The notes under the pieces: generated by a model
The model's input: the letters and a program-made list of their open reading frames with translations, nothing else
Databases searched by the model: none
What the model was told of the DNA's origin: nothing
Made by a program: the position numbers and the translations under genes
Part shown: piece after piece, positions 7,059 to 58,603 of the stretch
Position numbering within the stretch: position 1 is the stretch's first letter
How the letters are laid out: each line of letters opens with the position of its first letter
Source of the DNA: a virus
Length of the DNA stretch: 64,000 nt
Direction: 5' to 3' (one strand)
Virus record (IMG/VR): IMGVR_UViG_2786546475_000019
Span: 974 to 64,973 of that record

Positions 7059-7309
7059 TGCTACTAAACATAACTGATAAACACGGTGTCACTGTGGGTG
7101 TTGTTGAAGCAGACACCTTGGAGAAAGCTTCCAAGCTCGCAAGAGATCACGTCACCAAGTTGGTAGATCCTCCTGCTCCTGACGGCACTCCAGGCATGAA
7201 GTACCCTAAGACTGAAAGCTCTGATTTGTTCATCGCATTCTTCCGAGAAGAAACTGATAAGCGACCAATATTGAAATTCAAATTCAAGCCACTTGATGTG
7301 ATCAAGTAG
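7058..7309 (+). CDS. hypothetical protein
   Basis: 83-aa ORF; TAATG overlap with the upstream gene. Confidence 0.5.
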   Translation: MLLNITDKHGVTVGVVEADTLEKASKLARDHVTKLVDPPAPDGTPGMKYPKTESSDLFIAFFREETDKRPILKFKFKPLDVIK

Positions 7310-7320
7310 TTAATAGACCA

Positions 7321-8408: not shown

Positions 8409-8430
8409 AACGCAAAACAAAAGAGAACAA

Positions 8431-10265: not shown

Positions 10266-10274
10266 GGTGATAAA

Positions 10275-10526
10275 ATGAATACCGTTATTATGGGGGTAAC
10301 AGTTAGTTGGAAAACTACTGTTGCTGCAATTCTTTCCTCTCTGGCTGCTATTTTTATGGTGCTAGCTGCTTATTTTGATGGCGACCCAGCCACGATCCCT
10401 AATTGGGAAACTGCAGCAATTGCCGTGTTGGCAATCGGCCAAATGATTATTGGGGTTTTTACTAAGGACAATGATAAGTCCACTGAAGACCATAAACTTC
10501 CTCGTAAACGATTGAGGACAAAATAA
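10275..10526 (+). CDS. small two-TM protein, holin-like
   Basis: 83 aa, two hydrophobic helices and a basic C-terminus (KLPRKRLRTK). Confidence 0.4.
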   Translation: MNTVIMGVTVSWKTTVAAILSSLAAIFMVLAAYFDGDPATIPNWETAAIAVLAIGQMIIGVFTKDNDKSTEDHKLPRKRLRTK

Positions 10527-32255: not shown

Positions 32256-33403
32256 TGCCTTTTCTATTTCGTAACGGCCGCTTAGTTTATCAAGACGGCA
32301 AAGCAGTAGTTAGCGACGATACTACAGAGTGCGTCTGTTGTGATCAAATTGGAGAAGATCCTTGTACGTGTGCCGGGCTCCCTGATGCTATTTACGTCTA
32401 CGCTTACGACCGTTGGGCTTTGCAATATGATAGCTTTAGACCCATGTGGACGTGGGATGAATTCTTGTTTGAGAGGCAAACTGATACAACGTGGGAGAGC
32501 GTGGAGCTTGAAACTCTTAGGTGTGACGGAAGTAACTACTTAACGTGGGACGGCGTTGGATTGTTGCAAGGCCCGGGAAATAGTAATCTTGTTTGTGGGT
32601 GTGATCTTTTTGCAAGTCGTCAACCTTATTATGGGTATTATCGAATAGAGGAGTGCCACCCTGATTTCCAATCTTTTAACGCAACAAATCCTACTAGACC
32701 AATTCCTTGTCCTATTGAGAATCAAAATGATTTCGGGTATTCTATCAGTCGCACACTTAGCGGCTTATTCTTGGGATTTGAAGAATCGTATCTAGGGGGA
32801 GGGACTGGATACGATGGCGGCGAGAGCGGAGCCGGTAAACAATACGGCTACGGTCCATGGCAACGAACCTTGGGAAATGTTCAACGACCTGCGTTCCGGG
32901 ACCCATGTTTAGATTATCCTCCGTGGTTAGGAGCTACAGCTTACGGACCTTCGGCCTATGGAGCAGGGAGCATTGATTTTGACGAGTGTTACTCTCTTGA
33001 GTATTTAGAAGGTCCTTCTGAGACGTACCCTCAAGATTGGCAATATACTTGGGCTTTTGGTTGGAGTCAAGCGGAAGCTCCTAACATTGCCAAGTTTCTA
33101 AATTTGATAATTAAAGGCGATGGTACGCTATCTGTTATCTTCCACCGAGGCGTGCCTAATACAACTCACGCGTACGGCAAACCAATTATGTCGCCCCTGA
33201 ATCCTTTAGAAATTTGGGGAGGTACTGCTACAGGATACGACTTCAATGATAGCTCTCCACAAACTTTTGATATTGAAGTAAAGCGACATGGAATATATGT
33301 CACGCCTTTACCGATGACATACACTTTTACGATTCTTCAACAGAATCCGACAATTGATACTCCAGGCCCAACATCGATTTACACAGGGAGTTTTGAAGCA
33401 TGA
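32255..33403 (+). CDS. hypothetical protein (Cys-rich N-terminus)
   Basis: start moved to ATG 32255 (TAATG overlap); the track start at 32243 is TTG. Confidence 0.5.
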   Translation: MPFLFRNGRLVYQDGKAVVSDDTTECVCCDQIGEDPCTCAGLPDAIYVYAYDRWALQYDSFRPMWTWDEFLFERQTDTTWESVELETLRCDGSNYLTWDGVGLLQGPGNSNLVCGCDLFASRQPYYGYYRIEECHPDFQSFNATNPTRPIPCPIENQNDFGYSISRTLSGLFLGFEESYLGGGTGYDGGESGAGKQYGYGPWQRTLGNVQRPAFRDPCLDYPPWLGATAYGPSAYGAGSIDFDECYSLEYLEGPSETYPQDWQYTWAFGWSQAEAPNIAKFLNLIIKGDGTLSVIFHRGVPNTTHAYGKPIMSPLNPLEIWGGTATGYDFNDSSPQTFDIEVKRHGIYVTPLPMTYTFTILQQNPTIDTPGPTSIYTGSFEA

Positions 33404-33612
33404 GCCAAAGCCAACTTGAAGCTTACGCCAGACAACGTAAGTTTAGGCCCAAGATGGAAAATGTTCAAATTTGTGAACAGTGCGACCACTTAATACGTGA
33501 TCGCTACTGTTCCAAATTTGGCAAGTGTCCTGACGCTCAAAAAGATTTCTTTAAAGCCCTTGAACGAAGTAAATGTCCTTTAGAGAAATTTCCGTCGCAG
33601 CTCAGCGAATAG
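33400..33612 (+). CDS. small Cys-rich protein, last gene of the rightward arm
   Basis: 70 aa, CEQCDH...C...C; 3' end overlaps the convergent gene by 33 nt. Confidence 0.45.
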   Translation: MSQSQLEAYARQRKFRPKMENVQICEQCDHLIRDRYCSKFGKCPDAQKDFFKALERSKCPLEKFPSQLSE

Positions 33613-33996
33613 AATTCTAACTTGCTTAGGAGTTAACTCTAACAAACGCCCGATTTCCGAATACGTATAGTATTGAAGTCGTAAACTTACAGCCCATCGC
33701 TCCTCGACAGTTAGCCTATCTAGGTCAAACTGATCGAGGAATTCTTCTGCACTTCTTGATAATTCTTCAATATCGCCTAACGCTTCGGTATCATTGTTTG
33801 TTTGCATTTTCTTTCGACGACGGTAAGCGTCAATACCTCTCGACCGTAGTAAGGTTCTTAAGTGTGAGATGAATTTCTTTTCCTCAACTAGCTCATGATA
33901 ATTCTCCCACGCTTGTAAAAATTCCAAAGATAGCGAGCAGTCAAATTTAGTTTCAAACTCTCGCAACAAGTAAACATAATCGTCGATCCTTCGCAT
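33580..33996 (-). CDS. sigma-70 region-4-like HTH protein (minimal ECF/LuxR-type)
   Basis: LTVEERWAVSLRLQYYTYSEIGRLLELTPKQVRILFAELRRKF matches the region 4.2 pattern. Confidence 0.5.
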   Translation of the reverse strand: MRRIDDYVYLLREFETKFDCSLSLEFLQAWENYHELVEEKKFISHLRTLLRSRGIDAYRRRKKMQTNNDTEALGDIEELSRSAEEFLDQFDLDRLTVEERWAVSLRLQYYTYSEIGRLLELTPKQVRILFAELRRKFL

Positions 33997-34005
33997 GATA
34001 GTCTC

Positions 34006-34593
34006 CTACACTGCTGTTAAGTCTAGCCAACACAATTTTTTGTAAATTTTAGCAGTCAACAACGTATCATAAAGAGCGTCATGCAAACTAGCTTGATCGT
34101 AAGGAATGTCCAAAGCTTTGGCTAATGAGCTAAGCTTCACATCTGGGAACAATGGCTTATGGCCCCGAAGCTCACATCTATCATTGATAAAGTGAGCATA
34201 ATCCATGGTGTCTCTACAGAACCCGTGGAAGTGGAGTCCATAAGTTGCCGACCCATATAGTTTCTCCAACATAGGCCTATCAAAATCTTTGTAGTTGTGT
34301 CCAACTGGCAAGATTCTAGACCATTCCGCTGAGAAGTTTAACCGTTCAACCCAGTCTTCAAACGCATCCATTGCTTGGTCCTGAGTCAATCCATGGATGC
34401 TGGCTTTAGCTGCGTAGGGCGAAGTGATATTTACTTCTGGTTTTATCAACCACTGAACCGCTAGATGTTCAACAGGATCAAGATTATCATTAAGAGGAAT
34501 CATAGCAACTTGCCAGACCTCATCTAGCTCTACATCCGTTCCTGTCGTCTCAGTATCAATGCAGACTAACAAACTTCCTTTATGGTTTAACAT
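34006..34593 (-). CDS. DEDDh 3'-5' exonuclease (DnaQ-like)
   Basis: ExoI CIDTETTG, ExoII GHNYKDFDRPML, ExoIII HDALYDTL. Confidence 0.8.
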   Translation of the reverse strand: MLNHKGSLLVCIDTETTGTDVELDEVWQVAMIPLNDNLDPVEHLAVQWLIKPEVNITSPYAAKASIHGLTQDQAMDAFEDWVERLNFSAEWSRILPVGHNYKDFDRPMLEKLYGSATYGLHFHGFCRDTMDYAHFINDRCELRGHKPLFPDVKLSSLAKALDIPYDQASLHDALYDTLLTAKIYKKLCWLDLTAV

Positions 34594-35230
34594 TTTCTAG
34601 GCCCCCAGAATTAAGACCTTTGATAGACTTAGCCAGTTTTAGGGTCTTCGCAATCAAATCCTGAATGCTTCCATCATTTTCCAAAATGAAAGTTGCACGC
34701 TCCTTGAACCGTCCAACATCTTCGGAGACGTGCTCAGGTTTAGGAGGAATCTTGCCCGGACGTTCAAGATAAATTGTAACATCGAACAAATCAAACTCGT
34801 TATCAAACCTAACGTCGTCAGCCAAGAATGAATTTGACCCCATGAAATTTAAAACGCCTCGGACGTGAGCGTCCTTATTAAGCGTTCGAACAATCCCCGT
34901 CCCAAAATATTGCATCAACATTCGAGGAGTCTGCATGATAGGATGGTCCCAATGAGCCACTCGTTCAATTCCTCGAAGCGAAACTCCGCTACGTGTTTGG
35001 AAATGGAGACAAAACTTACGAATAACTCTGGGCCCGATTACTCGTTCATTGATGCGAATGCCTTTGAAGAAACTTTCAAGCCAGAAACATCGCTCCAAAC
35101 CAAAAGTCAAAGACAACGCACTTTTCAAATGTTTAGCCAACGGATGATAGTAAAGCTCTAGCTCTTGGGTAAGAACTTGAGCCACGAGACTTTTTCCACT
35201 TCCTTTGTAGCCAATGATACCTACTCTCAT
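34580..35230 (-). CDS. deoxynucleoside monophosphate kinase (T5-type)
   Basis: P-loop GYKGSGKS, RMLMQYFGTGIVR, ADDVRFDNE, ILENDGSIQDL resemble phage dNMP kinases. Confidence 0.7.
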   Translation of the reverse strand: MRVGIIGYKGSGKSLVAQVLTQELELYYHPLAKHLKSALSLTFGLERCFWLESFFKGIRINERVIGPRVIRKFCLHFQTRSGVSLRGIERVAHWDHPIMQTPRMLMQYFGTGIVRTLNKDAHVRGVLNFMGSNSFLADDVRFDNEFDLFDVTIYLERPGKIPPKPEHVSEDVGRFKERATFILENDGSIQDLIAKTLKLAKSIKGLNSGGLENVKP

Positions 35231-35655
35231 TCTTTTTCTCCTTTTTCTGGATTACCGAAACAGTTGTAACAAATACCTTCTACTAAGCAATAAGCTTCAC
35301 AATCCCCGCAATGTTCGCCAAGGTCTGTAGGAATACCATGATATTCGATAGGCTTATTGTGCTCTGTTGCGTAGTCCAACTCAGCTTGAACGCCGATTGA
35401 TTGTCTCCAACCCCACTGAGTTAGAACTATCAAAGATTCACAAAAGCTCAAATACTCTAAGTCAATCTTTTCCCAAAAGTCCCAAGTGGTGGCCACGTTG
35501 GACATATGTTTCTGAAGCTCATGACTGTGAGTAATAGGGCTGTAAACGTTGGTCCCATTCTGAACCAAACGGGCCGCGTACCTTGTGACTACTCCAAACC
35601 GATGGTCTATCATTCGAGAATCAGAGTGAGTGTAAGGGGTAGCTAAATATATCAT
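35227..35655 (-). CDS. DUF1937 / nucleoside 2-deoxyribosyltransferase-like protein with a Cys-rich tail
   Basis: MIYLATPYTHSD...VYSPITHSHEL pattern; C-terminal CGDCEAYC..CYNC. Confidence 0.45.
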   Translation of the reverse strand: MIYLATPYTHSDSRMIDHRFGVVTRYAARLVQNGTNVYSPITHSHELQKHMSNVATTWDFWEKIDLEYLSFCESLIVLTQWGWRQSIGVQAELDYATEHNKPIEYHGIPTDLGEHCGDCEAYCLVEGICYNCFGNPEKGEKE

Positions 35656-36347
35656 TTGCTTCTCCGGTTAGCTTGATAATTTGCGATTGAAAACCCACGA
35701 GGAGTCATACTACGAATCTCTTTTACGTTAGGGTGTGATCCTCCAATTTTACCATATTGCCGGGAGTATCCATCTTCTGGTATCACTTTCTTTTTAGGCG
35801 GCATCTTAAACCCGCCACCTGTCCACAGGTATGTTTCCTTCGGGTACGCGTCCCGTGGAGCAATATATTGTGGCCAAGTAGGGTGTTCATCATCTTCTGG
35901 TAAGTACCCACCGTATTCGTACGGGTGAAACTTGTAATCTGGTTTACGCCACAAAGATGATAGTCTCGATTTAGGATTCTCAATGAACCACGGACATTGC
36001 AACTCTGTGAAAACGCGACGACACCAGATAGCGTAACGTGCAGCTTTGTATTGGAAGTCTGGATCGTGGCCTTCTTTCGAGGGCCAGTGAATAATTCCAG
36101 AGACTGCCAAGTCGGTACAAACAGGGAACGCCGCCCCAAATACCACTTCCTTTCCTTGAAAAGTATCAATGATACGCCTAACTTGTTCCAGGTCGTGAAG
36201 GTCAGCCTTGTGGAAATGAATCACGTTGTCCCCGATCCGTTGTCGATGATCTACGTGCTTTATATCGTAAGCATGACATTCGTAACCTGCTCTGGCCCAA
36301 GGATGAAGTAACACCCCGGAGTGATCGTACAAGCTTAAAACTATCAT
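35652..36347 (-). CDS. C5-cytosine-methyltransferase-like protein (short, divergent)
   Basis: FPVCTDLAVSG (PC motif IV-like), FIENP (motif VI-like), RSMTPRGFSIA (motif X-like); motif I degenerate (LYDHSG). Confidence 0.4.
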   Translation of the reverse strand: MIVLSLYDHSGVLLHPWARAGYECHAYDIKHVDHRQRIGDNVIHFHKADLHDLEQVRRIIDTFQGKEVVFGAAFPVCTDLAVSGIIHWPSKEGHDPDFQYKAARYAIWCRRVFTELQCPWFIENPKSRLSSLWRKPDYKFHPYEYGGYLPEDDEHPTWPQYIAPRDAYPKETYLWTGGGFKMPPKKKVIPEDGYSRQYGKIGGSHPNVKEIRSMTPRGFSIANYQANRRSK

Positions 36348-37168
36348 ACGGCCACGTCACCTTTGATAGCCGGATGGGGATTGTAACCTTCAAGAATAAT
36401 ATCTTCCCACCGAAGTGATAAAATATTCTCCAAAGGAGATAACACCGGATCAGCTTGCCTTGCAAAACGAAGCTTTGGAGCTTCTTTAGCTGGGCGTCTC
36501 AACTGTAGGTTGACTTGATCTACGTGGTTGTTGTAGATATGAGCGTCGCCAAACGTATGGTAATACGTCTTGGGTTTAAGGTCCGTGGCCCACGCCAAAA
36601 TGTACATAAGCAACACGTAGGATGCAATGTTAAACGGAACGCCAAGAAACATATCAGCAGAGCGTTGATACATTTTCAAGGACAGTTCTCCATTTGATAC
36701 GTAGCATTGGAAAAACATATGGCACGGCGGTAAGGCCGCATCTCCACCTGGAAGGTGATGTTTTGGGTGCCAAGCAGAGCAAATAACTCGTCGGCTGTTT
36801 GGAGACTCAGTTAGGCAATCAAGCACGTACTGAATCTGATCTACGCCGTTGAAGTCTCTCCACATCTTCCCATACACCGGACCAAGCTCTCCGGCAGCGT
36901 CTGCCCATTCGTCCCAGATATGAACATTCAGGTCTTGTAACGATTTGATATTTGTCTCTCCTCGAAGAAACCACATCAGTTCCTCAAATACCAACCGCAA
37001 AGGTACAAACTTTGTAGTGAGCAATGGGAAGTGACTACTGATTGTTCCGTAAATTTGAGGGCCGAATAGACGAATTGTTCCGGTCCCTGTTCTATCATCA
37101 TGTGTTTCTCCGTGGAGCAAAACACTTTTAAGTAATGACAGATACTGTTGTTCTAACGCTGAATACAT
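36344..37168 (-). CDS. thyA: thymidylate synthase ThyA
   Basis: DRTGTGT, LPPCH, YQRSADMFLGVPFNIASY, C-terminal PHPAIKGDVAV; Asn of FNIAS retained (dUMP type). Confidence 0.9.
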   Translation of the reverse strand: MYSALEQQYLSLLKSVLLHGETHDDRTGTGTIRLFGPQIYGTISSHFPLLTTKFVPLRLVFEELMWFLRGETNIKSLQDLNVHIWDEWADAAGELGPVYGKMWRDFNGVDQIQYVLDCLTESPNSRRVICSAWHPKHHLPGGDAALPPCHMFFQCYVSNGELSLKMYQRSADMFLGVPFNIASYVLLMYILAWATDLKPKTYYHTFGDAHIYNNHVDQVNLQLRRPAKEAPKLRFARQADPVLSPLENILSLRWEDIILEGYNPHPAIKGDVAV

Positions 37169-37320
37169 TAAGTGCTCCTTTGTTTTAGGTACGTGTCTAA
37201 GGTAATTACTGCTGCTTCAATAGTAGACTTCTCCTGTTCAAATTCTTTCAATAGGATCTCCTGATGATCTTTGGAAAGAATTATCAATGAATTTCTAGTT
37301 CTGATTTTTTTTTTTTTGAC
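37168..37320 (-). other. start-less 50-codon frame opening one codon before the A13 run and ending in TAATG on the thyA start
   Basis: no ATG/GTG in frame; would be fused to 37295..37573 if the run were A12. Confidence 0.35.
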
Positions 37321-37573
37321 CTATTTTAACTGCCAGTATTAAATCTTCAACGTTCCAGGCGTCAGTTTCAATACCAGTAAATGATAGTTTTCGATTCTCA
37401 GGACCGGTATAAATTACTCCGCCCAAGTCATAGATCATATTAGATCTGAATGTTGCACTGTCTGGTGTAACATTGTAGACTCGCTCGCAATGAAGAATCC
37501 GTTCACAAGCCGTAGCCCAATCCGAACACCATTGGTTAACAACTACTTCATCTTGGAAATTGATAAATACCAT
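37295..37573 (-). CDS. hypothetical protein ending in a poly-Lys tract encoded by A13
   Basis: 92-aa ORF; 3' end GGT CAA AAA AAA AAA AAT CAG AAC TAG. Confidence 0.5.
   Translation of the reverse strand: MVFINFQDEVVVNQWCSDWATACERILHCERVYNVTPDSATFRSNMIYDLGGVIYTGPENRKLSFTGIETDAWNVEDLILAVKIGQKKKNQN
37305..37317 (-). repeat. 13-nt homopolymer (A13 on the coding strand)
   Basis: T13 on the + strand at 37305-37317. Confidence 0.95.
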
Positions 37574-37585
37574 AAACAGCCTTTC

Positions 37586-38236
37586 TTAAACCATATTCAA
37601 AGTAATTGGAGGTTTGTCGCTTTTTAAAAGTTTAGCTAGCTTTTCTAACGCTCGCTTTTCAAGTTGACGAACTCTTTCTCGCGAGATATTAAGAGTTTCC
37701 CCAATAGTCTTAAGAGGAATCCCTTGGGCTCGTAGCCTCAAAACTAAAGCATCTCGACTATTTAACTCAAGAAAAGCTTTTTCTAGAGCAATAAGCTCCT
37801 CTTGCCATTCTATCAAATCCCTATCAAGACATTCTAAAGGTGTAACAGGGTTATTAAATAGCCCGTGTAAGGTTTGAAACATTGGAGCACGAGCTATAGC
37901 AGCTTTAGCTCTGTCAAGATGAGCTGGATTTGGAGATACTTTAATTAACTCCACCTTGGTTTTCATGTAAGTTATCATTCGTTGTTTCACCCACGGAGTG
38001 GCGTAAGTTGAAAACTGATAACCTTTACTAGGGTCAAATTTTTTGACCGCCTGACATAACCCACTCATTCCTTCTTGAATTAAATCGTCTAAATCAAGCT
38101 TAGAATTTTTCTTGGCAAAAGACACCGCTATCTTGATAACCAATCCTTGATTATCTAACACTAACCGATTGAGTGCTTCATCAGCTTCCTTTCTAGCAGA
38201 ATGATATTTTTGTAATAACTCGTCATTAGTATCCAC
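37586..38236 (-). CDS. sigma-70 family RNA polymerase sigma factor (group-3-like)
   Basis: region 2 DDLIQEGMSGLCQAVKKFDPSKGYQFSTYATPWVKQRM; region 4.2 TIGETLNISRERVRQLEKRALEKL. Confidence 0.85.
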   Translation of the reverse strand: MDTNDELLQKYHSARKEADEALNRLVLDNQGLVIKIAVSFAKKNSKLDLDDLIQEGMSGLCQAVKKFDPSKGYQFSTYATPWVKQRMITYMKTKVELIKVSPNPAHLDRAKAAIARAPMFQTLHGLFNNPVTPLECLDRDLIEWQEELIALEKAFLELNSRDALVLRLRAQGIPLKTIGETLNISRERVRQLEKRALEKLAKLLKSDKPPITLNMV

Positions 38237-38239
38237 AGT

Positions 38240-38425
38240 TCACTCACAATCTAAAGGGAATTGTTCATGTATTTCCAAACTCACAACCAACTTCCCACAC
38301 TTAGGACAACGAACCGACTGTTTTCTTTTCTTGAGCCGATGCTCAAGCTCCTGTTTTGTTGACCGTTGTTCAGCGGGAAAAGTTGTTTTGACTACCACAG
38401 GCTCCGGGGTTTCATTTACGTCCAT
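38240..38425 (-). CDS. small zinc-ribbon protein
   Basis: 61 aa, CPKCGK motif. Confidence 0.45.
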   Translation of the reverse strand: MDVNETPEPVVVKTTFPAEQRSTKQELEHRLKKRKQSVRCPKCGKLVVSLEIHEQFPLDCE

Positions 38426-38805
38426 AAGTCAACCAAATGTTCAGGAACAGGTTGTAGCTCTCCGTTACGTTCAATCAAAACGCTTCCAGGGCAAACTGTG
38501 TAAACTCTATCACCATAGTCAAGTATAGCATGTTCACTAACGGAACAGTGACAAACCGGACAGAGCCACTCGCCATCAATGTTAGGGTGACGAAAATGTC
38601 TCAACGAGCTGTCGTCCTTCAACGTGTTAAAATGTTTCACGAACCCGCCAAGCTTGATCTCTGCTACGGCTTTCGGGTAATTGAGTTCGAGTAGCTCATC
38701 TTGTGTCAGTGTCACGACCTGACCACGTTTAAATGGTCCACGGTCCGCGAAGCGACCATTGAAATAATGAGCACCTGCCGCTGATAGTTTTACTTTGAAA
38801 TTCAT
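38416..38805 (-). CDS. hypothetical protein (CPVCHC motif)
   Basis: 129-aa ORF, overlapping neighbours. Confidence 0.5.
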   Translation of the reverse strand: MNFKVKLSAAGAHYFNGRFADRGPFKRGQVVTLTQDELLELNYPKAVAEIKLGGFVKHFNTLKDDSSLRHFRHPNIDGEWLCPVCHCSVSEHAILDYGDRVYTVCPGSVLIERNGELQPVPEHLVDLWT

Positions 38806-39149
38806 TTCAAAACCTCGTTACACCACTCTTCCAAATCATTCACCCAACGTCCAGCTAAGTTGAACACAAACCATAAATGATACCACTTATGGTCTTTACC
38901 TAACTGCGTTTCGAAAGCTTCCTTCCACCACTCACTTGGTATCTGAAAATTACCCCATCGAGGCGTTTCGTCTCTTGCCCAGCGTTCAAGAACTGTTTGC
39001 ACGGTCCGTGCTACTTGCTTCAAGGAGTCTTCTTCGAATCCTTTCACACTTGCGACAAGTAAATCACGAAGTGATAATCCGTTGTCTTTTGCAAGCTCCT
39101 GAATCTTTTTGCGAGCTACTTCAGACATTTCAATTTTTAATGTTGGCAT
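38802..39149 (-). CDS. possible ribbon-helix-helix DNA-binding protein
   Basis: N-terminal LKIEMSEVARKKIQELAKDNGLSLRDLLVASV has a strand-helix-helix pattern. Confidence 0.3.
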   Translation of the reverse strand: MPTLKIEMSEVARKKIQELAKDNGLSLRDLLVASVKGFEEDSLKQVARTVQTVLERWARDETPRWGNFQIPSEWWKEAFETQLGKDHKWYHLWFVFNLAGRWVNDLEEWCNEVLK

Positions 39150-39327
39150 TCATTTTCTCCGATACGAAAATATAGATTGTACGAAACGTTAGACTAACAG
39201 TCACAAACCAAAGCACAATGAACGTAGGAAATGAGTGCCAAGCTTTCATATCACAGTGATGTAAGAAATATGCCAACAAATACCCCGAAGCAATTGTTAA
39301 TAGGCTAAATAATATCACTTTTACCAT
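39130..39327 (-). CDS. small membrane protein
   Basis: 65 aa, two hydrophobic helices. Confidence 0.45.
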   Translation of the reverse strand: MVKVILFSLLTIASGYLLAYFLHHCDMKAWHSFPTFIVLWFVTVSLTFRTIYIFVSEKMNANIKN

Positions 39328-39682
39328 CCGGTTTCTCCGTATTTGATAACAATATTGCAGTCCGCGTAACGCCGCCTATGGTCCACGTATTAGGGAGTAG
39401 CTCAATAAGCTCCTCTGCAATCTCTTGCATCTCCTCTTTATCAATGCTATTTGAAGTTACAAGAATATCAACGCCATGGTCGTAGACCATGTTTCGCCCG
39501 CAGAATGAACAGTTTTCGGCCATATAAGCGTAGACTATTTGGAAAGGAGAAAGATCTTCAACAGTGATATAAACGTTGTAGGTGTCAATACTGATACTCA
39601 AAGATTGAGCATCTTCAATATCAGACAATGCTTCACGTAACTTGCCTGCCGTTAAAGTCTTATCTTCTAGTTTCATCTTCAT
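39305..39682 (-). CDS. hypothetical protein
   Basis: 125-aa ORF, ATGA overlap upstream. Confidence 0.5.
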   Translation of the reverse strand: MKMKLEDKTLTAGKLREALSDIEDAQSLSISIDTYNVYITVEDLSPFQIVYAYMAENCSFCGRNMVYDHGVDILVTSNSIDKEEMQEIAEELIELLPNTWTIGGVTRTAILLSNTEKPDGKSDII

Positions 39683-40206
39683 AGGTCCCCGTCCTTTCGG
39701 TTGTTTGATTCTTCGACGGTAAAACCTTTCTTGTACCGTCCTTCAAGTTTGTTTCGATTCATTTGTAGCACTTCTTCAAGTGTTGAGCCAATTGTTTGAG
39801 CGGCTTCCCGTATGTAGCCTATTAAAAGGCCATGACACCGTTTCACAAGTTCTCGGTCAAAAGGCAGACCTTGATAAAAGACTTTCTTTTTATGTTCTGC
39901 CAATGTTTCGAGGGTTTCTAAAATGCTGTCCCCACTATCTACCCATATCTCGAACGGCTCAATATCAATTGACGCCGCAAGCAGCAAAACGTAGAACAAC
40001 ATATCGCCAAGCTCAAGTTTAATATGTCGAGCGTCGTCCGTGTTCCTCGTTTCAAAGAACTCAGCCACGATCCCATCAACAGCAGTCGCGAATCGCGGAA
40101 CGTCGACCTCTTTATGAAGGTTCCTTTGAGCTTCAAAATACTCGTGAAGATCGCTTGATTGAGGTGATAATTTTTCGTTAATAAAGTTAAGATGTTCTTT
40201 AAACAT
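39679..40206 (-). CDS. MazG-like nucleoside triphosphate pyrophosphohydrolase
   Basis: AEFFE...KLELGDMLFYVLLLA resembles MazG E-x2-E / ELGD motifs. Confidence 0.55.
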   Translation of the reverse strand: MFKEHLNFINEKLSPQSSDLHEYFEAQRNLHKEVDVPRFATAVDGIVAEFFETRNTDDARHIKLELGDMLFYVLLLAASIDIEPFEIWVDSGDSILETLETLAEHKKKVFYQGLPFDRELVKRCHGLLIGYIREAAQTIGSTLEEVLQMNRNKLEGRYKKGFTVEESNNRKDGDL

Positions 40207-40216
40207 TGTTTCTCCT

Positions 40217-40426
40217 TTAGGCAGAACCTAAACCTTTCCCACAAATGGCACACTCAATAGTATCATACAACCAGCCCGGAATGATAATTACAAGCCGTTT
40301 CTTGTACTTAGGGCCGCAGCATTCCTTTCTTGATTTAATTTGTTTAACTTCCTTGTTGGTAGCCTCTCGAACTTTCGATGATAGGACGTGTCCTGCGAAA
40401 CGTTCCGTAACTATTTCGACTTTCAT
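40217..40426 (-). CDS. small zinc-ribbon protein
   Basis: 69 aa, CCGP...CAICGK. Confidence 0.45.
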   Translation of the reverse strand: MKVEIVTERFAGHVLSSKVREATNKEVKQIKSRKECCGPKYKKRLVIIIPGWLYDTIECAICGKGLGSA

Positions 40427-40710
40427 TCTTGCTCCCCGAGTGCGAAGCCAAGCTCTTGGTACCGGCTAACACGTTCTTCTGCGGATCCACCACTGAAAAC
40501 TACTCTATTTTCTGTCTTGAAAATACTGCCGGTCCAAGTAAGATTTTCAATCTTAACTGTTACTTCTTCGTCTAACTCAAGCAACAAACCTTCAAAAGGT
40601 TGAAACGGTAGCTCATACAGCAAACTTAAACTCCCATGATACTTACTCACATACCTTCCGTTAAGGTCCTTATTCTCTTGTAAGTGAACTTTAATTAGAA
40701 TATGATACAT
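40423..40710 (-). CDS. hypothetical protein
   Basis: 95-aa ORF, ATGA overlap. Confidence 0.5.
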   Translation of the reverse strand: MYHILIKVHLQENKDLNGRYVSKYHGSLSLLYELPFQPFEGLLLELDEEVTVKIENLTWTGSIFKTENRVVFSGGSAEERVSRYQELGFALGEQE

Positions 40711-41024
40711 TACTTCTGCTCCTCGAAATGCTTAGATGGAAAACGATGCCAGCCAAATAATAACCGCTCCATGTTCCGTGGTTCGTCGATCTCAGCAACC
40801 GGACGAGCACCACCGACCGTGGTGAACTGGACGTACATACACTTCTTACGCTTATACCCAATACACAGATGGCCTTTCAACCGTTTGATAGGTCCACGGT
40901 ACATGTAGTATTTGGTGCGACTGAGCCGCCGGAACCGTTTCGTTAACCTTTCCATGACTGTTCCCAAGCGTGCAACGCTTTGAGCAAGTTCCTCAGTTGA
41001 ACAACTTAAAAGGTTATTTATCAT
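40710..41024 (-). CDS. hypothetical basic protein
   Basis: 104-aa ORF. Confidence 0.5.
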   Translation of the reverse strand: MINNLLSCSTEELAQSVARLGTVMERLTKRFRRLSRTKYYMYRGPIKRLKGHLCIGYKRKKCMYVQFTTVGGARPVAEIDEPRNMERLLFGWHRFPSKHFEEQK

Positions 41025-43911: not shown

Positions 43912-44387
43912 TCCGGCTCAGTAGTTCCAACGTATCCCATACCTTTGCCAAGAATCTTGTCTTGATAATAATACCATCGGTATGAGAAGATACAGTCTTC
44001 GAAATCTCCGGCCAAGCCTTTATAATATCCAGGCATAGCCAAGTTTGGAGGAGTAAGAGGGCCACGTCGTATGTAACACGGAGATTGATAAAGATACCCA
44101 ACCCGGTTCCATACTTCATGTAAAGCTAACCCTCTCTTATCCCGCTCCTTCAACAACGCTATCATATGCTTCAAAGTCCATTGATAATTTGAATCAGTGG
44201 AACGAACCCATTGAGTTGACGGGTGATTTGCGAAGCATGGTTTACACATTCCTTGACGCCAAAGTCCAACTTCGTCATGTGCCGTTGATAACATTTGGGC
44301 ACACTCAATCGGCATTTTTGTTAAATGGTCCGTGGCCATGTAGCTAGCTGCAAGGACCGGGTCCATATCAAGGAAGAAAACATTCAC
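43881..44387 (-). CDS. conserved phage protein of unknown function
   Basis: N-terminal FFLDMDPVLAASYMATDHLTKMPIECAQMLSTAH recalls a widespread phage/virus family I cannot name with confidence. Confidence 0.5.
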   Translation of the reverse strand: MNVFFLDMDPVLAASYMATDHLTKMPIECAQMLSTAHDEVGLWRQGMCKPCFANHPSTQWVRSTDSNYQWTLKHMIALLKERDKRGLALHEVWNRVGYLYQSPCYIRRGPLTPPNLAMPGYYKGLAGDFEDCIFSYRWYYYQDKILGKGMGYVGTTEPEWLLHLKGKL

Positions 44388-44770
44388 GCCCCAAGTCCAA
44401 GCGATTTGATGGAAGCCCTTTTGAGTGCTGTCAAGGTAACAACACGTCCAAGTAGCTTGGAAAGTGTTTCTTCGAAGTTATCAAGTTGCTCCGATAATTT
44501 GTATTCGAAGCCGTTCAAAAGTATCACTTCTTCCAAGTTCTCAGAAACCCAAGAATTTAAGTCTTGGTCTTTCACAAGATACTTACCGTCTTGAATCGTT
44601 AACTTGCCATTGATAGTTGGGCCTTTCAATTCGTCTCGCCAAATTTTCACGTTTTCAGGAGCGGTTATGTTAATTGAAGCAGCTCCTGATCCTGCATCAA
44701 AGATTGTTACCCGAACGTCGTTCCCAATTGTAAATGATTGCGACGCCCAGCGTTTAAGAGTTAACGCCAT
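44384..44770 (-). CDS. hypothetical protein
   Basis: 128-aa ORF. Confidence 0.5.
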   Translation of the reverse strand: MALTLKRWASQSFTIGNDVRVTIFDAGSGAASINITAPENVKIWRDELKGPTINGKLTIQDGKYLVKDQDLNSWVSENLEEVILLNGFEYKLSEQLDNFEETLSKLLGRVVTLTALKRASIKSLGLGA

Positions 44771-50189: not shown

Positions 50190-50981
50190 TCATTTAGTAG
50201 GACGACACAATGCTCGTGTCTTCCAGTAGTTGAAGCTACGTTCCAACTCTTTGACGAACGCTTCCGCATCCATCTGAGTATCAGTGCCGCCGTCGCTGCC
50301 GAAGTGGTTGTGCAGCAACGTTTCAGGTTTCATCGGAGCATTCAGGTCTTCTAAGTCCACCCCAGCGTTGACTGAGATGATATTCCACCGCCCGTAGGCT
50401 TGTTCTCCGCTCTCATAGAGCACGTCTCGATGATAAAGGACGACTTCGACGTGGCAGGCGGCGGCCTTATTTACGCCGTCCAAGTATTCATGCCGACGTG
50501 GCGACTCGCCGTCACGTCGTGGCTTATACTCCACGATCAAAGTATCATTGTTCCGAAGCTTACGAATAGGGCAATAAACCCCGTTCGCGTCAATCGGAAC
50601 GATGATAACTCCGTCTCTATAGCCGGGACGCTGCTCGTGAAATCGGGCTTGTACCTGTTCAACGAGCACTTCGTCTGAGAACTTCCAGTGGGAGAACTCA
50701 CTATTGGCTGTCTGCCGACTAACGAAGTCGTGGACCGCTACGTCTGGAGCTGGGTTGCTCCAGTTCTGTTGCGTAACCTGCAACACGGTGGGTTCTCCAT
50801 TAGGGTGGATCGCCGCTTTGTCCCTTGGCTCGTAGTCATAAATGAAGGTATCTCCGTCCGAGGATTGAAGGGCATTACGCCCCGATCCATCTTCTTCTGC
50901 GTCGCCGTAGGGGACGTAGCCGTTTTTAAGAAGTATGATAAATTCGTCGTTACTTAACATTTGTTGGTTGTCAGTTTTCAT
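50190..50981 (-). CDS. hypothetical protein
   Basis: start moved to ATG 50981 behind AACAGGAGAGCGAG, the same RBS block as at 51730. Confidence 0.5.
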   Translation of the reverse strand: MKTDNQQMLSNDEFIILLKNGYVPYGDAEEDGSGRNALQSSDGDTFIYDYEPRDKAAIHPNGEPTVLQVTQQNWSNPAPDVAVHDFVSRQTANSEFSHWKFSDEVLVEQVQARFHEQRPGYRDGVIIVPIDANGVYCPIRKLRNNDTLIVEYKPRRDGESPRRHEYLDGVNKAAACHVEVVLYHRDVLYESGEQAYGRWNIISVNAGVDLEDLNAPMKPETLLHNHFGSDGGTDTQMDAEAFVKELERSFNYWKTRALCRPTK

Positions 50982-50998
50982 CTCGCTCTCCTGTTTAT

Positions 50999-51283
50999 TT
51001 AACAAGCTTTCCATTCAGCAATAAGTTTAGCAGCTTCGGGTGAGACTTTCACCCACTGTTTCACTGAAATGTCCTCATGGGTTTCAACAGCTGCCGTGAT
51101 ACGTGTGTTGGTCTTCGGACCATTAGCCGCTAAGCCAAAGAGTCCACCGCACTCAGAACTCCAGTAAAGGACCATTCGAGCGTTTCGCAATTTGATAGGC
51201 TTTCCAGCTTCGGGGTCTTTGTCCGCCATACCGATTATAACGGCTCGTCCGTTTTCCCCGCAACAAACTAGATACATCGACAT
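50999..51283 (-). CDS. hypothetical protein
   Basis: 94-aa ORF. Confidence 0.5.
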   Translation of the reverse strand: MSMYLVCCGENGRAVIIGMADKDPEAGKPIKLRNARMVLYWSSECGGLFGLAANGPKTNTRITAAVETHEDISVKQWVKVSPEAAKLIAEWKAC

Positions 51284-54628: not shown

Positions 54629-55396
54629 TTAACTCCCAAGAATATAAAGTGCTTCAACCACGGAAGATCGAATCTCGCCAGCAGATTGATAGATTCGATA
54701 CTCGTACTTTTCAGTCCATTCCTGAGCTTCCAAGTATGTGTTCTTGTAGTGATTGATAACAACAGTGCCTTGTCGGTCCTTGGCCCACGAAACAATTTCC
54801 TCAAGCGAGATCAGATCGAACCCTTGTGTCTCATCGTAAGGCGGGTCCAAGTAGAATAACGCATCGACACTATCATATGAAGCTAGCTTCTTCCAGTCCC
54901 AATTCTCGATTTGCCACTTGCTAATACGAGCACGAAGCAGGGGCCAGATTCTCATTTTACTGGCTACATTCGGCTGCTTCTGTGAGAAGTTGCGAGCGTA
55001 GTTAAGCCTCCGCCCCAAGTAAGACATAACCGCTGTCACGTACCACTTTGCTGCACGCTTCACGGGGTTACTTGATAGCTGCCAAGTCTTTTTGCAATGC
55101 AACCATTCTTCTTCGGAAGAAGGATGATACTTTTTAAGTTCTTCGACAAGCTCCTCGTAGTGGTTACGGAACGCTCGATAGAAGTCAATGATCCCGGAGT
55201 CTTTATCATTAAACACCATGTACGGGAACTGAGCCACGTTCAATGATACCATTCCTGTCCCGCCAAACACGTCAATAAATTTCTTGTGCGTGTCTCGCAT
55301 GTGGTTCAGAATAGGAAGAATATGTTGCAAGGCCCGTGCCTTAGACCCTATCATTCGAAACGGAGCTTCACGTTTCTTGAAGTCTTTATCAGTCAT
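54629..55396 (-). CDS. dam: Dam-type N6-adenine DNA methyltransferase
   Basis: MIGSKARAL...FIDVFGGTGMV (SAM binding) and YLDPPY catalytic motif. Confidence 0.8.
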   Translation of the reverse strand: MTDKDFKKREAPFRMIGSKARALQHILPILNHMRDTHKKFIDVFGGTGMVSLNVAQFPYMVFNDKDSGIIDFYRAFRNHYEELVEELKKYHPSSEEEWLHCKKTWQLSSNPVKRAAKWYVTAVMSYLGRRLNYARNFSQKQPNVASKMRIWPLLRARISKWQIENWDWKKLASYDSVDALFYLDPPYDETQGFDLISLEEIVSWAKDRQGTVVINHYKNTYLEAQEWTEKYEYRIYQSAGEIRSSVVEALYILGS

Positions 55397-55979: not shown

Positions 55980-58586
55980 TTAAGTTGCCCTTTCTCCCTT
56001 AATCGTTTCCCTTTTAACACCGTCTGGAGTTTCAACAAAACGAAACCCGTTGTCTTTCGGAGCTTCATACGAGAAGCGAACATTGTAGATACATGTCTTT
56101 TGCATCTCGTCAATAGCTATCAAATACATTTCCGCTAGGTTCTGTTCGAACTTCTTACGATTTGCTCGCCCCCCGTCGTCCATGTAGTTCTTATACAGAA
56201 GTTGAAGCTCCACTTTTGATCCAGGCTGTTCTTGGAGCACGGACCGTGCAAAGAGTTCAACGTCGGTTCGGTTCAAGTCCGCAGCTTGCTCTTTATCAAC
56301 CGTATCCACAACAGGAACATTCAAACGCCCCTGAGTTGGCGGTATTTGATACGCTAACAAGGCATACAGAAACGCGGGAGCTTGAGCTTCCAGTTGTTCC
56401 AAAAGAAGTTTCTTTGGAATAACTTTATCTGGCTTCTTGGGTACATTGATAACCGTGATTCGGGTGTCTCCGGGAAGTATCGGACAGAACTCACGATTGT
56501 TCGCGGTGTGAATCCAATGCGACGTATTAGGTATCATGTAAGCGGGCTTGCCTTTTGTGTTGACTGAGATTACTTTGGACGTAACATAGTCTTTAACTTT
56601 TTGATAAACAGTGGAGTCCGAGTTCAAGTTAATCTCCTCAAGAACGCAAAGCACCGCCCCAGCAAGTTCACTGTTGAACGAGCTGACTAACGCGTTCTCC
56701 GCTCGAACGACACCGGGACTAAACAACAATGATAATGCTTCATGCAAAATCGACTTCCCGGTGTCTTGCTCCGTGGAATACAAAAACAGAAACGGCAAAG
56801 GTTCAAACGGTTGTTGTATCAATGACGCGACCCACGCAAACAGATAGTCGTGTCCTTTGCAAATACCGTTCTCCGTGAACCAATTATCCTTACGAACGTA
56901 TTGATCTAGAGAGTGTCCGATATGGTCCAGAATCTTCATCCAAAGATCAAAGTTTCCTTCTTCTGGAGTGTGTCGCAGTTGAGCAGCTCCCCGATTCCAT
57001 AAACGATTACCCGGATATTCAGACTCAAAGGGTCGTGAAACAATGTTCCAGGGCTTCATGATAGCTTCACCCTGCATCTGCTGAATCTCTTTAGTGTTCA
57101 TTCCTTGGCTTTTGAGACCGAGCGTCAGGTTGGCGATCGGTTCTTCGATCCAACCGTTATCATGCGTCTCAATAGCCCAACCGGCGTCCACGCTACCCAT
57201 AATCATGTGACGAATCTGCGTATTCGTGTCCACGTCATACGGGCTACCAGTACGAGACTCTTTTATCACTTTCAACCAACGTGTTCCTTTTGCGATCCAA
57301 CCTTCAATGCCGCCTGGGTCGCCTTTGATTTTCGGAATCTCAATTTTAAGCTTGTTTTCCTTTAGCTGAGTGACAGTTGCTTGACGAGCTATCAATACTT
57401 CGTCAATGGCTTGCATTTCATGTTGCTGGAAAAGCTTAGTCAATTTATGAGCAGGAAGCACCATTCCTTTTTTATCATCTTCTAACGCTCCTGAATCTTT
57501 CACCAAGGTCCAAAGCGGTGGAACATAATTCAAATACGTGCGAGTCCATCCGTTCTTCGTGGTCCACGATTCATGTTCCTTGGCTTCGTTGCCATATCGG
57601 TACACGGCCCATGCTCCGTGTGGAAGCGGATACGCGAAGCAGTTCTGTTTGTGGAGATCAGTTCCGTCACTGATAGTCTGGAAATCGCCTTTAAACCCGA
57701 GTTCTTTGGAAGCTTGCTCCAATAGTTTAGTGTGCGTGATAAACATCTTTCCTTCCGCGTTCCAGTAACCAAACGCGGAGTTGTTATTCATCCACTCAAG
57801 CAAACGCTCATGTTCTTCTTCAAGCGTCACGGACTGTTTGTGCTTGATAATTTCTTCCATACGGTCATCAGCATAAGAGTGTTTCTTCTTACCGCTCACG
57901 ACGCCAATATGATCTCGCCATCCCAGCGGCTCTTTGATATGGGCCTCAGCTTCCTTAATAATTTGAAAGCCGTTCTCTCCCGTTTTCCGTGACCATACCC
58001 ACATATTACAACCGAAAACATCAACTGCAAGGTCAAAGTCGAAACCAGTCTCAAGACATAGTTGACTCAGAACGCCGCGAGCAAGAGCAGCGTGTTCTGC
58101 CCGACTTGTCGTAGTGATAAGGTCTTCAAAGAAAACATATAAGTGGTAGCCAGCTCCACTTTTAGATCGTTGTACTCGCACCCAAGGTACGTTACACGCT
58201 CGTTGTTGAATATCAAGTAGATCAGTCTGCGTTAGCTTGTGCTTGTGCCGAGCTGAGTGGCCCACGATACCGTCAAAGTCGAAAGCAACATATCGCGAGA
58301 TGCATTGCCCAAAGTCCCACCCCGATAAACCAACCATTGAGGCGTGATCTTCCAGGCTGAACTTGATATTTCCTTCATCGTATTTGCCATCAATTCGAAA
58401 ATTCTTCCAGACTTGAACACCGTCAGTCCACTCCCGGTAGGTCCGACCTTTGTATTCCTTATCAACAGGCTCGCCGCCATCAGCGGCTACGTTTACTTGA
58501 ACTTCCATTGTAGGCGAGTATAACGCCGCCATGTGGGGTTCTGCGTTATCACGCAAGAATCGTTCTAAAGCTTCACTTTTACGCAT
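55980..58586 (-). CDS. AEP primase-polymerase fused to an SF3 (D5/P4-type) helicase
   Basis: VAFDFDGIV and SKSGAGYHLYVFF (AEP motifs); Walker A STEQDTGKS in the C-terminal half; start set to ATG 58586 (GAGG RBS), track start 58592 is TTG. Confidence 0.8.
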   Translation of the reverse strand: MRKSEALERFLRDNAEPHMAALYSPTMEVQVNVAADGGEPVDKEYKGRTYREWTDGVQVWKNFRIDGKYDEGNIKFSLEDHASMVGLSGWDFGQCISRYVAFDFDGIVGHSARHKHKLTQTDLLDIQQRACNVPWVRVQRSKSGAGYHLYVFFEDLITTTSRAEHAALARGVLSQLCLETGFDFDLAVDVFGCNMWVWSRKTGENGFQIIKEAEAHIKEPLGWRDHIGVVSGKKKHSYADDRMEEIIKHKQSVTLEEEHERLLEWMNNNSAFGYWNAEGKMFITHTKLLEQASKELGFKGDFQTISDGTDLHKQNCFAYPLPHGAWAVYRYGNEAKEHESWTTKNGWTRTYLNYVPPLWTLVKDSGALEDDKKGMVLPAHKLTKLFQQHEMQAIDEVLIARQATVTQLKENKLKIEIPKIKGDPGGIEGWIAKGTRWLKVIKESRTGSPYDVDTNTQIRHMIMGSVDAGWAIETHDNGWIEEPIANLTLGLKSQGMNTKEIQQMQGEAIMKPWNIVSRPFESEYPGNRLWNRGAAQLRHTPEEGNFDLWMKILDHIGHSLDQYVRKDNWFTENGICKGHDYLFAWVASLIQQPFEPLPFLFLYSTEQDTGKSILHEALSLLFSPGVVRAENALVSSFNSELAGAVLCVLEEINLNSDSTVYQKVKDYVTSKVISVNTKGKPAYMIPNTSHWIHTANNREFCPILPGDTRITVINVPKKPDKVIPKKLLLEQLEAQAPAFLYALLAYQIPPTQGRLNVPVVDTVDKEQAADLNRTDVELFARSVLQEQPGSKVELQLLYKNYMDDGGRANRKKFEQNLAEMYLIAIDEMQKTCIYNVRFSYEAPKDNGFRFVETPDGVKRETIKGERAT

Positions 58587-58603
58587 TAACAAACCTCATT
58601 AAC

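Follow-up and report, generated by a model that had tools for sequence, protein, structure and literature searches.

A coupled block of five genes in an uncultured phage is, in our judgment, probably an ordinary operon for dNTP supply that also includes the gene of an orphan C5-cytosine methylase acting on DNA, a member of the PHROG 757 family. The phage is tailed and siphovirus-like and its genome comes from a marine (Tara Oceans) metagenome; a stretch of 64,000 nucleotides, called the window below, was analysed. Four of the five genes, with a MazG gene nearby, are standard nucleotide and replication accessories of phages. The other one encodes a protein of 231 aa and is a new member of a recognised and widespread family of compact phage methyltransferases: the finding is real, but it is not new. 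Thus, a gene that looks odd from its sequence is neither an orphan in the sense of lacking a family nor a novelty. What is such a protein doing among enzymes of nucleotide metabolism? Most likely, the predicted methyltransferase modifies replicated phage DNA at specific sites against host restriction.

Organization of the operon

The six ORFs in question, that is, the five-gene block and mazG, are all present where a preliminary description of this DNA had placed them, and all lie on the minus strand (Table 1). Its domain calls for the exonuclease, the kinase, DUF1937, ThyA and MazG are also confirmed by Pfam gathering scores, the cut-offs of PF00929 (24 bits), PF21448 (27.1), PF09152 (23) and PF03819 (22) all being exceeded. 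The genes are arranged in the order thyA, methyltransferase, DUF1937, dNMP kinase and DEDDh exonuclease with overlaps of 4, 4, 4, and 14 bp, and the start of the methyltransferase gene overlaps the stop of thyA in the tetranucleotide ATGA. The five coupled genes probably form a single transcription and translation unit; a scan of 33400-38400 for promoters and terminators gave nothing beyond shuffled expectation. The mazG gene is situated 2.5 kb upstream of the block, outside the coupled genes. This part of the genome is without a close sequenced relative, as megablast of 33000-41000 against phage records returned zero matches, and for the window proteins encoded at 5208-7058 and 50190-51014 no exact match was found among the encoding contigs.

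Table 1. Genes of the window discussed in the text, with their positions and the profile matches that identify them.
Gene product	Positions	Strand	Profile matches
ThyA, canonical folate-dependent thymidylate synthase by sequence, first operon gene	36344..37168	-	PF00303 325.6 bits, 2.6e-97
Predicted compact 231-aa Dcm-like C5-cytosine DNA methyltransferase, PHROG 757 family	35652..36347	-	phrog_757 2.4e-60
DUF1937 / nucleoside 2-deoxyribosyltransferase-like protein, C-terminal Cys-rich tail	35227..35655	-	PF09152 69.8 bits, 3.9e-19; phrog_355
Phage-type deoxynucleoside monophosphate kinase	34580..35230	-	PF21448 35.6 bits; phrog_139 7.4e-25
DnaQ-like DEDDh 3'-5' exonuclease, last operon gene	34006..34593	-	PF00929 49.6 bits, 8.7e-13; phrog_192
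MazG-like nucleoside triphosphate pyrophosphohydrolase	39679..40206	-	PF03819 29.7 bits; phrog_229 5.7e-18
Dam-like (D12 class) N6-adenine DNA methyltransferase, second methyltransferase of the phage	54629..55396	-	PF02086 1.3e-18; phrog_56 3.9e-38
Phage sigma-70-family factor, upstream of the operon	37586..38236	-	PF04542 and PF04545; phrog_351 1.9e-43

Thymidylate synthase and base replacement

By its sequence, the thyA product belongs with the canonical thymidylate synthases: it scores above the cut-off of the equivalog model NF002497 (330.5 bits, cut-off 327) and above that of TIGR03284 (309.8, cut-off 108), and it aligns with E. coli ThyA from end to end at 49% identity. In this alignment R21, E58, W80/W83, Y94, C146, R166/S167/D169, N177, H207/Y209 and the C-terminus are all kept. 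Its best PDB matches are true thymidylate synthases without exception, and the sole notable difference from bacterial and phage enzymes of this kind (EC 2.1.1.45) is a short insertion near residues 236-245. The preliminary description, which had favoured a true thymidylate synthase for the retained Asn and the canonical C-terminus, was therefore right on this point.

The identity of this enzyme matters for the reading of the whole block. T4 gp42, SPO1 gp29 and the XP12 dCMP methylase are ThyA-family hydroxymethylases or methylases of phages with replaced bases, and in phages with bases derived from 5-hmdU, too, a ThyA-family enzyme is found together with a dNMP kinase and MazG. The window resembles these phages in having a ThyA-fold gene, a dNMP kinase in the block and MazG near it, and many of its ORFs are without recognisable function. 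It might be supposed, then, that the block is a pathway of thymidine hypermodification in which "ThyA" is a dUMP hydroxymethylase and the remaining genes process 5-hmdU. However, the window ThyA retains Asn177 and the other residues specific to thymidylate synthases and scores as a true one, and the downstream modification genes of phages with replaced bases were not found in the window ORFs scanned. Among about 70 ORFs covered by our own scans or by precomputed Pfam tables, known hypermodification families had no match, nor was a gene for a hydroxymethyl-kinase, a glycosyl- or aminoacyl-transferase or a CmoA-like protein found; the PHROG and Pfam searches likewise detected, in the ORFs that they covered, no 5-HMUDK-type kinase, glycosyltransferase, aminotransferase or radical-SAM enzyme. 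We regard hypermodification as the least probable of all the readings considered here. The canonical ThyA and the lack of hypermodification genes among the ORFs searched support the original proposal, that the block serves ordinary dTMP supply and not base replacement.

A different kind of modification is conceivable for the 231-aa protein, which might transfer a non-methyl group, for instance carboxymethyl from Cx-SAM, in the way of CmoX of Synechococcus phage S-B43. The latter belongs to a 5-carboxymethylcytosine system, typically accompanied by CmoA and a ligase, and the marks of the CmoA-CmoX system are the Cx-SAM synthase CmoA itself and an Arg that replaces the Asn of motif X (PMC12783734). 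Neither a CmoA-like gene nor a ligase had a match among the window ORFs scanned. Moreover, CmoX is a full-size homologue of C5-methyltransferases with a chain of 333 residues, in contrast to the 231 aa of the window protein. Such a transfer seems extremely unlikely.

The other accessory genes

The translation of the exonuclease gene contains a DxE motif (VCIDTETTG) and an H-x4-D motif (HDALYD), and it matches phrog_192, "DNA polymerase exonuclease subunit", at 3.2e-28; several epsilon/exonuclease models of NCBIfam also match, all under their cut-offs. The kinase, labelled T5-type in the preliminary description, has the P-loop GYKGSGKS, and its closest solved relative is T4 gp1 (1DEK), to which the match is weak (E = 0.044). 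The DUF1937 protein, which matches PDB 1T1J at 5e-14 and PF05014 below threshold (1.7e-4), is probably a nucleoside or nucleotide N-glycosyl enzyme used for salvage or pool cleaning. Its C-terminal tail had been described as a Cys4 motif, but there are five cysteines (C116, C119, C123, C129, and C132), which are arranged as CxxC-x3-C-x5-CxxC in residues 116-132. None of 41 homologues in phage records covers this tail, and a literature search on DUF1937 turned up no papers. In the operon as we read it, ThyA would convert dUMP to dTMP, the kinase would convert dNMPs to dNDPs, and the exonuclease would serve in proofreading or in DNA recycling.

A predicted compact methyltransferase from a widespread phage family

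No Pfam or NCBIfam model, PF00145 included, reaches its threshold with the 231-aa protein. The protein matches phrog_757, "DNA methyltransferase", over residues 1-229, which correspond to profile positions 15-220 of 247. Homologues are found in 1,489 phage records, where many are labelled Dcm or C5 methylase, and they fall into 976 clusters at 50% identity. The window protein is 57% identical to close marine relatives, 55% to the methylase of CRP-207, and 42% to damhaus gp42. Thus, the term "divergent" used in the preliminary description holds relative to PF00145, but not within PHROG 757, of which the protein is a typical member. PF00145 is the only Pfam family matched by several PHROG 757 members (6 of 74, all below threshold, with a best E of 0.0039), and one member aligns to its profile positions 4-116. 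Ten family members of greater length (292-453 aa) were scanned with Pfam for fusion partners that could hint at the substrate, without a match. In BFVD the same fold occurs within proteins longer than 1,100 aa, and the name given to one of these includes a helicase N-terminal domain. Searches of the family against PDB sequences by phmmer and profile hmmsearch gave non-significant matches only.

PHROG 757 is among the commonest methyltransferase families of phages, yet it has no Pfam model, and its members are inconsistently annotated as "hypothetical", "Dcm" or "site-specific methylase", the reported trigger of retron Ec86 being the one member that has been studied. With the window copy, the family now includes a member from an uncultured siphovirus-like phage of marine origin, and the conserved family core is seen to survive at 42% identity.

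Motifs and fold of the methyltransferase

The motifs FPVC (residues 74-77), ENP (123-125) and TPRGF (215-219) had been recognised before and are indeed present. The SAM-binding motif I had been called degenerate; G11, D28 and D49, which align with motifs I-III of C5-methyltransferases, are instead the consensus residues of the family. Cys77 and Glu123 align with C82 and E128 of the damhaus protein and are kept in 72 and 73 of 74 diverse members, respectively, and K170, equivalent to K175 of the K42 enzyme, is kept in 72. The next residue is Glu171, where the K42 enzyme has K176; this column varies within the family, with K in 31, R in 16 and E in 6 of the 74 members. When the 74-member family was compared with E. 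coli Dcm by hhalign, FPxC was aligned with PCQ and ENP with ENV at an E of about 0.05-0.07, which is non-significant alone. Motifs III-VI were in register both with E. coli Dcm and with nine Dcm-like sequences from viral contigs, the latter being 64-100% identical and too uniform for a useful profile. Motifs I and IV also align with those of DNMT2 at an E of 0.65, which is informative for register only. The window protein has motifs I, IV (PC) and VI (ENV) in this order on a class-I SAM-methyltransferase fold.

Compared with the canonical C5-methyltransferases of PF00145, such as M.HhaI, E. coli Dcm and DNMT3A/B, the window protein is about 100-240 residues shorter, stays below the Pfam threshold and is without the canonical target-recognition domain. 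This last feature had already been noticed in the preliminary description, and no alignment to a known domain of this kind was obtained. The stretch of about 85 residues between ENP and TPRGF (128-210) is a family-specific insert, highly conserved as WRKPD...HPYEYGGY...HPxWP...RDAYxKxTxLWTG, and it is modelled partly with low confidence (pLDDT <50 in segments 147-166 and 191-216).

Is such a short protein active on DNA at all? It might be an inactive remnant, or a methyltransferase acting on something else, for example RNA, as DNMT2/FtsJ do, and thus have no role in DNA modification. The failure of curated models to recognise it would fit this idea, as would its best PDB matches by Foldseek, which are RNA 2'-O-methyltransferases of the FtsJ type, and its departures from residues shared by its closest relatives, e.g., K171E and C173Y. 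Nevertheless, at all of the 34 positions conserved in at least 80% of the 74 members the window protein agrees with the consensus, and these positions include the catalytic Cys and Glu as well as G11, D28 and D49 of the SAM site. Its ORF is intact, is coupled to its neighbours, and occurs in identical form on 18 contigs from several samples. In addition, the pair PC...ENP is a signature of C5-pyrimidine chemistry and not of FtsJ. With the 5mC made by the K42 enzyme in DNA also standing against it, we find a remnant or a non-DNA enzyme unlikely.

An experimentally studied relative

The Dcm-like protein of phage K42 raised 5mC in msDNA as measured by LC-MS, while its quadruple Cys/Glu/Lys mutant did not, and its gene is reported to trigger retron Ec86 (bioRxiv 10.1101/2023.08.16.553469). 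In the same work K175 and K176 were proposed as a Lys pair for substrate binding, and the CCWGG specificity was assumed from that of E. coli Dcm and not mapped; 5mC production within PHROG 757 is reported for this protein only (bioRxiv 10.1101/2023.08.16.553469). Literature on a mapped specificity in the family yielded nothing beyond this retron paper and a remark in the BASEL study, according to which there is no simple correlation between such enzymes and protection from restriction (PMC8594841). The damhaus gene for gp42 has 711 bp, and the four residues that were mutated in K42 Dcm are all found in its product at the same positions, as C82, E128, K175 and K176; KarlJaspers/Bas06 carries the same 711-bp gene (93% DNA identity), annotated as "Dcm-like C5 cytosine methyltransferase".

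The window protein belongs to the same family as these enzymes of Drexlerviridae and matches them over the full length (231 versus 236 aa), with the Cys of FP[PV]CTD, the Glu of ENP, KxT and TPRGF in common, and in both cases the gene is an orphan phage gene. The phages are different, one being known from a marine metagenome and the others being coliphages, and Glu171 takes the place of K176. Furthermore, the window gene lies inside a coupled nucleotide operon, whereas the damhaus gene is surrounded by small genes, with a helicase about 0.7 kb downstream of it.

The preliminary description had left three options for the 231-aa protein, namely that it is inactive, that it uses a different substrate, or that it modifies DNA. 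Because the K42/KarlJaspers member of the family is reported to make 5mC and all the strongly conserved residues are retained, comparison of sequences and analogy support the last of these. In the reaction, Cys77 of FPVC would attack C6 of a flipped cytosine and Glu123 of ENP would protonate N3, and then the methyl group of SAM would be transferred to C5 of the cytosine. The enzyme would methylate replicated phage DNA at specific sites prior to packaging, and together with the Dam-like enzyme it may protect the phage DNA against host restriction. For the window copy we infer activity, target sequence and anti-restriction role by this analogy.

Gene linkage, the nucleotide pool and GCGC sites

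Does the position of the gene tell us something about its substrate? The methyltransferase might act on the nucleotide pool by methylating dCMP or dCTP at position 5, with the kinase phosphorylating the product and MazG removing dCTP. Indeed, in the translationally coupled block the gene stands between thyA and the genes for DUF1937 and the dNMP kinase, MazG is near, and the protein has no canonical target-recognition domain. The LC-MS result on K42 is also compatible with methylation of a precursor: total 5mC was measured in reverse-transcribed msDNA, so methylation of DNA and that of precursors are not formally separated by it. If this reading were true, the phage DNA would be densely or completely 5-methylated at cytosine by a SAM-dependent route; the route to 5mC in phage XP12 is folate-dependent.

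On the other hand, in a comparison that covered five phage genomes or contigs with a homologue, the methyltransferase gene was not adjacent to thyA or the kinase gene in the close marine relatives, in CRP-207 or in damhaus, and the homologues were found among small early genes or with helicases nearby. Because it is not conserved, the linkage fits a mobile orphan DNA methyltransferase better than a pathway enzyme. The closest structural relatives of the protein are DNA methyltransferases, and the long fusions in BFVD also speak against a pool enzyme, as does the fact that a dCMP deaminase or an exclusion system of the dCTPase type was not identified. It is thus very unlikely that the enzyme uses deoxycytidine nucleotides as its substrate, or that it acts on DNA with hardly any preference for sequence, so as to give densely 5-methylated phage DNA. 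Under the preferred reading as an orphan DNA methylase, the window copy shows that a compact methyltransferase gene can be inserted into an operon of nucleotide metabolism.

The composition of the DNA deserves a remark. GCGC occurs at one site in 64 kb, near position 1324, while about 117 are expected. Enzymes that cut at GCGC, such as HhaI and HinP1I, do not cleave a site that carries 5mC, and such avoidance would therefore be needless if every cytosine were methylated, which is a further point against methylation of the pool. Loss of GCGC through decay of methylated sites was considered as well and rejected, since the deamination products GTGC and GCAC are not enriched (0.96).

The nucleotide-metabolism block

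The six ORFs that the preliminary description had assigned to nucleotide metabolism lie at the positions and on the minus strand it had given, and its domain calls hold as well: five of the six score above the Pfam gathering threshold, and the PHROGs functions agree. Start and stop codons overlap as ATGA at the thyA/methyltransferase, methyltransferase/DUF1937 and DUF1937/kinase junctions, and the kinase and exonuclease genes share 14 bp, which suggests that the five adjacent genes form one translationally coupled unit; a promoter and terminator scan gave no convincing internal element in the operon region. The dNMP kinase had been called T5-type; its nearest solved relative is T4 gp1, to which it is weakly matched. 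The DUF1937 protein ends in a Cys-rich tail, which had been described as Cys4, while we count five cysteines (CxxC-x3-C-x5-CxxC). None of 41 homologues from phage records covers this tail, all matches ending near residue 110, and it may be a zinc-binding add-on. The ORF located 5′ of thyA is called at differing lengths, 134 aa and 95 aa in two other assemblies of the phage (L001 and L002, respectively) and 92 aa in the window, which suggests a frameshift or a variable site in this gene.

Features of the operon and of the surrounding phage genome
Feature	Position in window	Strand	Basis or remark
Five large ORFs (453, 543, 616, 403, 342 aa)	856-11554	+	upstream of terminase
Subtilase-family peptidase	11554-12492	+	PF00082; after the five large ORFs
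Terminase, portal, major head, tape-measure genes		+	
Sigma-70-family gene, weak, 138 aa	33580-33996	-	sub-threshold region 4 and 2 matches
RNase_T/DEDDh exonuclease	34006-34593	-	Pfam above gathering score; PHROGs agrees
DNMK dNMP kinase	34580-35230	-	Pfam above gathering score; PHROGs agrees
DUF1937 protein (Cys-rich C-terminal tail, residues 112-142)	35227-35655	-	Pfam above gathering score; PHROGs agrees
Compact methyltransferase, 231 aa	35652-36347	-	
Thymidylat_synt (ThyA)	36344-37168	-	Pfam above gathering score; PHROGs agrees
ORF 5′ of thyA	37168-37573	-	length varies among assemblies
Sigma-70-family gene, clear, 216 aa	37586-38236	-	
MazG	39679-40206	-	Pfam above gathering score; PHROGs agrees
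CsrA homologue	~44383-44769		called on matching contig (L001:1579-1965)
Dam-like D12-class N6-adenine methyltransferase	54629-55396	-	PF02086 at 1.3e-18
Primase/helicase	55980-58592	-	
Dda-like helicase, DHH phosphoesterase, ParB-like protein		-	

Can such a block serve base replacement? ThyA scores above the NCBIfam equivalog cut-off for thymidylate synthase (NF002497, 330.5 vs 327), its top PDB matches comprise nothing but true thymidylate synthases, and its alignment with E. coli ThyA, running from residue 2 to the C-terminus, has 49% identity. It keeps the equivalents of E. coli R21, E58, W80/W83, Y94, C146, R166/S167/D169, N177 and H207/Y209, and the C-terminal end ...HPxIKxxVA[IV] is conserved. 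A hypermodification pathway would call for partner genes; no hydroxymethyl-uracil kinase, glycosyl- or aminoacyl-transferase, CmoA or comparable gene was found by Pfam and PHROG searches of about 46 ORFs together with precomputed Pfam results covering about 36 called genes of 25652-46348. With ThyA canonical and these partners absent from the scanned ORFs, such a pathway is disfavoured, which supports the earlier reading that the block supplies dTMP in the ordinary way and does not serve base replacement. The nucleotide block is an ordinary one.

A widespread family of compact methylases

The methyltransferase gene looked odd at first because its product matches no Pfam or NCBIfam model. It is, in fact, a full-length member of PHROG 757, 'DNA methyltransferase' (2.4e-60). 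Homologues were found by tblastn in 1,489 phage records, including T1-like Drexlerviridae, Kagunavirus, rV5-like, Klebsiella, Vibrio, Campylobacter and Roseobacter phages, where they are inconsistently annotated as hypothetical, Dcm or C5-cytosine methylase, and an exhaustive HMMER search gave 976 clusters at 50% identity. The protein itself has been deposited as 'MAG: Dcm methylase [Acidobacteria bacterium]'. The gene is a newly found member of a phage family already known and widespread, and the interest that remains sits with the whole family, with its unmapped specificity, no recognition domain and no Pfam model.

How is this family related to canonical C5-methyltransferases? In an AlphaFold model (pLDDT 76, pTM 0.79) the protein shows the class-I methyltransferase strand order, with FPVC after strand 4 and ENP on strand 5. 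Foldseek retrieves FtsJ-type RNA methyltransferases and DNMT3A/B from the PDB, and family members annotated as DNA-cytosine methylases from viral models. In sequence-profile comparisons, individually non-significant, motif I and PC are in register with DNMT2 and motifs III-VI with E. coli Dcm. PF00145 is the sole Pfam family matched by several members (6 of 74, best E 0.0039), one of them aligning to profile positions 4-116. These lines are each weak and mutually consistent; on their basis, the protein has both the fold and the chemical signature of a C5-pyrimidine methyltransferase. Unlike canonical enzymes, it scores too low for Pfam membership and lacks a canonical target-recognition domain; instead, residues 128-210 form a strongly conserved family-specific segment, modelled in part with low confidence. 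Several members of 300-450 aa carry extra N-terminal regions, none matching Pfam, and the fold is also embedded in phage proteins of 1,100-1,400 aa (BFVD A0A6J5SE15, A0A6J5NPY6), one of which, named 'Helicase/UvrB, N-terminal', may be a helicase fusion.

A studied relative is known from phage K42 (KarlJaspers/Bas06-like). Mutants of K42 escaping the retron Ec86 disrupt a 711-bp 'dcm' gene, whose expression raises 5mC in msDNA as measured by LC-MS; its C82A/E128A/K175A/K176A mutant is inactive, and its CCWGG specificity was taken over from E. coli Dcm, not mapped (bioRxiv 10.1101/2023.08.16.553469). The gp42 gene of phage damhaus is also 711 bp long, its product is 42% identical to our protein and has Cys, Glu, Lys and Lys exactly at 82, 128, 175 and 176, and the KarlJaspers genome has the same 711-bp gene (93% DNA identity, 'Dcm-like C5 cytosine methyltransferase'), which ties the window protein to the K42 enzyme. 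Its own counterparts are C77, E123, K170 and E171, the last lying in a column variable across the family.

Proposed activity and probable GCGC avoidance

Inactivity had been considered, and SAM motif I had been described as degenerate. However, at none of the 34 positions that are conserved to ≥80% among 74 diverse members does the protein depart from the consensus; G11, D28 and D49, at the places of the SAM-binding motifs, are among them. The ORF is intact, coupled, and identical on 18 contigs. These features argue against a degenerate remnant. The residue conservation, with the K42 data, makes an enzyme that is inactive or acts on RNA less likely, and carboxymethyl transfer is disfavoured because no CmoA was found in the scanned ORFs. 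The enzyme would methylate cytosines at C5 in replicated phage DNA, within a particular sequence motif, using SAM, with Cys77 as putative nucleophile and Glu123 as general acid, and, together with the Dam-like enzyme, would likely blunt host restriction. It is to be noted that the BASEL study found no simple link between these methylase genes and restriction resistance (PMC8594841); with CCWGG assumed for K42 as well, target sequence and benefit are what we infer.

A separate point of interest is GCGC: the 64 kb contain a single copy, at position 1324, where a second-order Markov model predicts about 117 (ratio 0.01, Poisson P about 1e-49). TATA, which ranks next among depleted tetramers, has a ratio of 0.48. 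The trinucleotides are common (GCG 601, CGC 668), and C follows GCG in one of 601 cases. GCGC is also absent from the examined stretches of L001 and L002; in five other phages or contigs that carry homologous methyltransferases, it is depleted little or not at all (0.67-1.1). Decay of methylated sites was considered as a cause, but no excess of its deamination products GTGC/GCAC is seen (0.96), and the loss thus resembles selection against a restriction site. The phage seems strongly to avoid a GCGC-specific (HhaI/HinP1I-type) nuclease, the host's or conceivably its own; by implication, the methylases it encodes leave the cytosines of GCGC unprotected.

Might the enzyme methylate nucleotide precursors, or DNA densely without specificity? 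The GCGC observation speaks against this, as do those of its structural neighbours that are DNA enzymes, and the gene order of relatives. In close marine relatives (57%), in Roseobacter phage CRP-207 (55%) and in damhaus, the gene adjoins neither thyA nor a kinase gene and has small early genes, integrases or helicases nearby. Linkage to thyA in the window is thus local, as would be expected of a mobile orphan DNA methyltransferase, and precursor or dense methylation is disfavoured.

The surrounding phage genome

The window is the genome of a tailed phage, and Tara Oceans assemblies contain the same sequence on contigs of roughly 72 kb; a megablast search of phage records with positions 33000-41000 gave no match at the DNA level. 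The phage encodes a primase/helicase, helicases and a DnaQ-like exonuclease that stands alone, yet no DNA polymerase gene was recognised among the ORFs searched; such a gene could be located beyond the window or escape recognition, or the host may provide the enzyme. The five large ORFs upstream of the terminase match no Pfam or PHROG model. GATC is mildly under-represented in the window (0.73). Two sigma-70-family genes flank the operon, which suggests that transcription is phage-directed.
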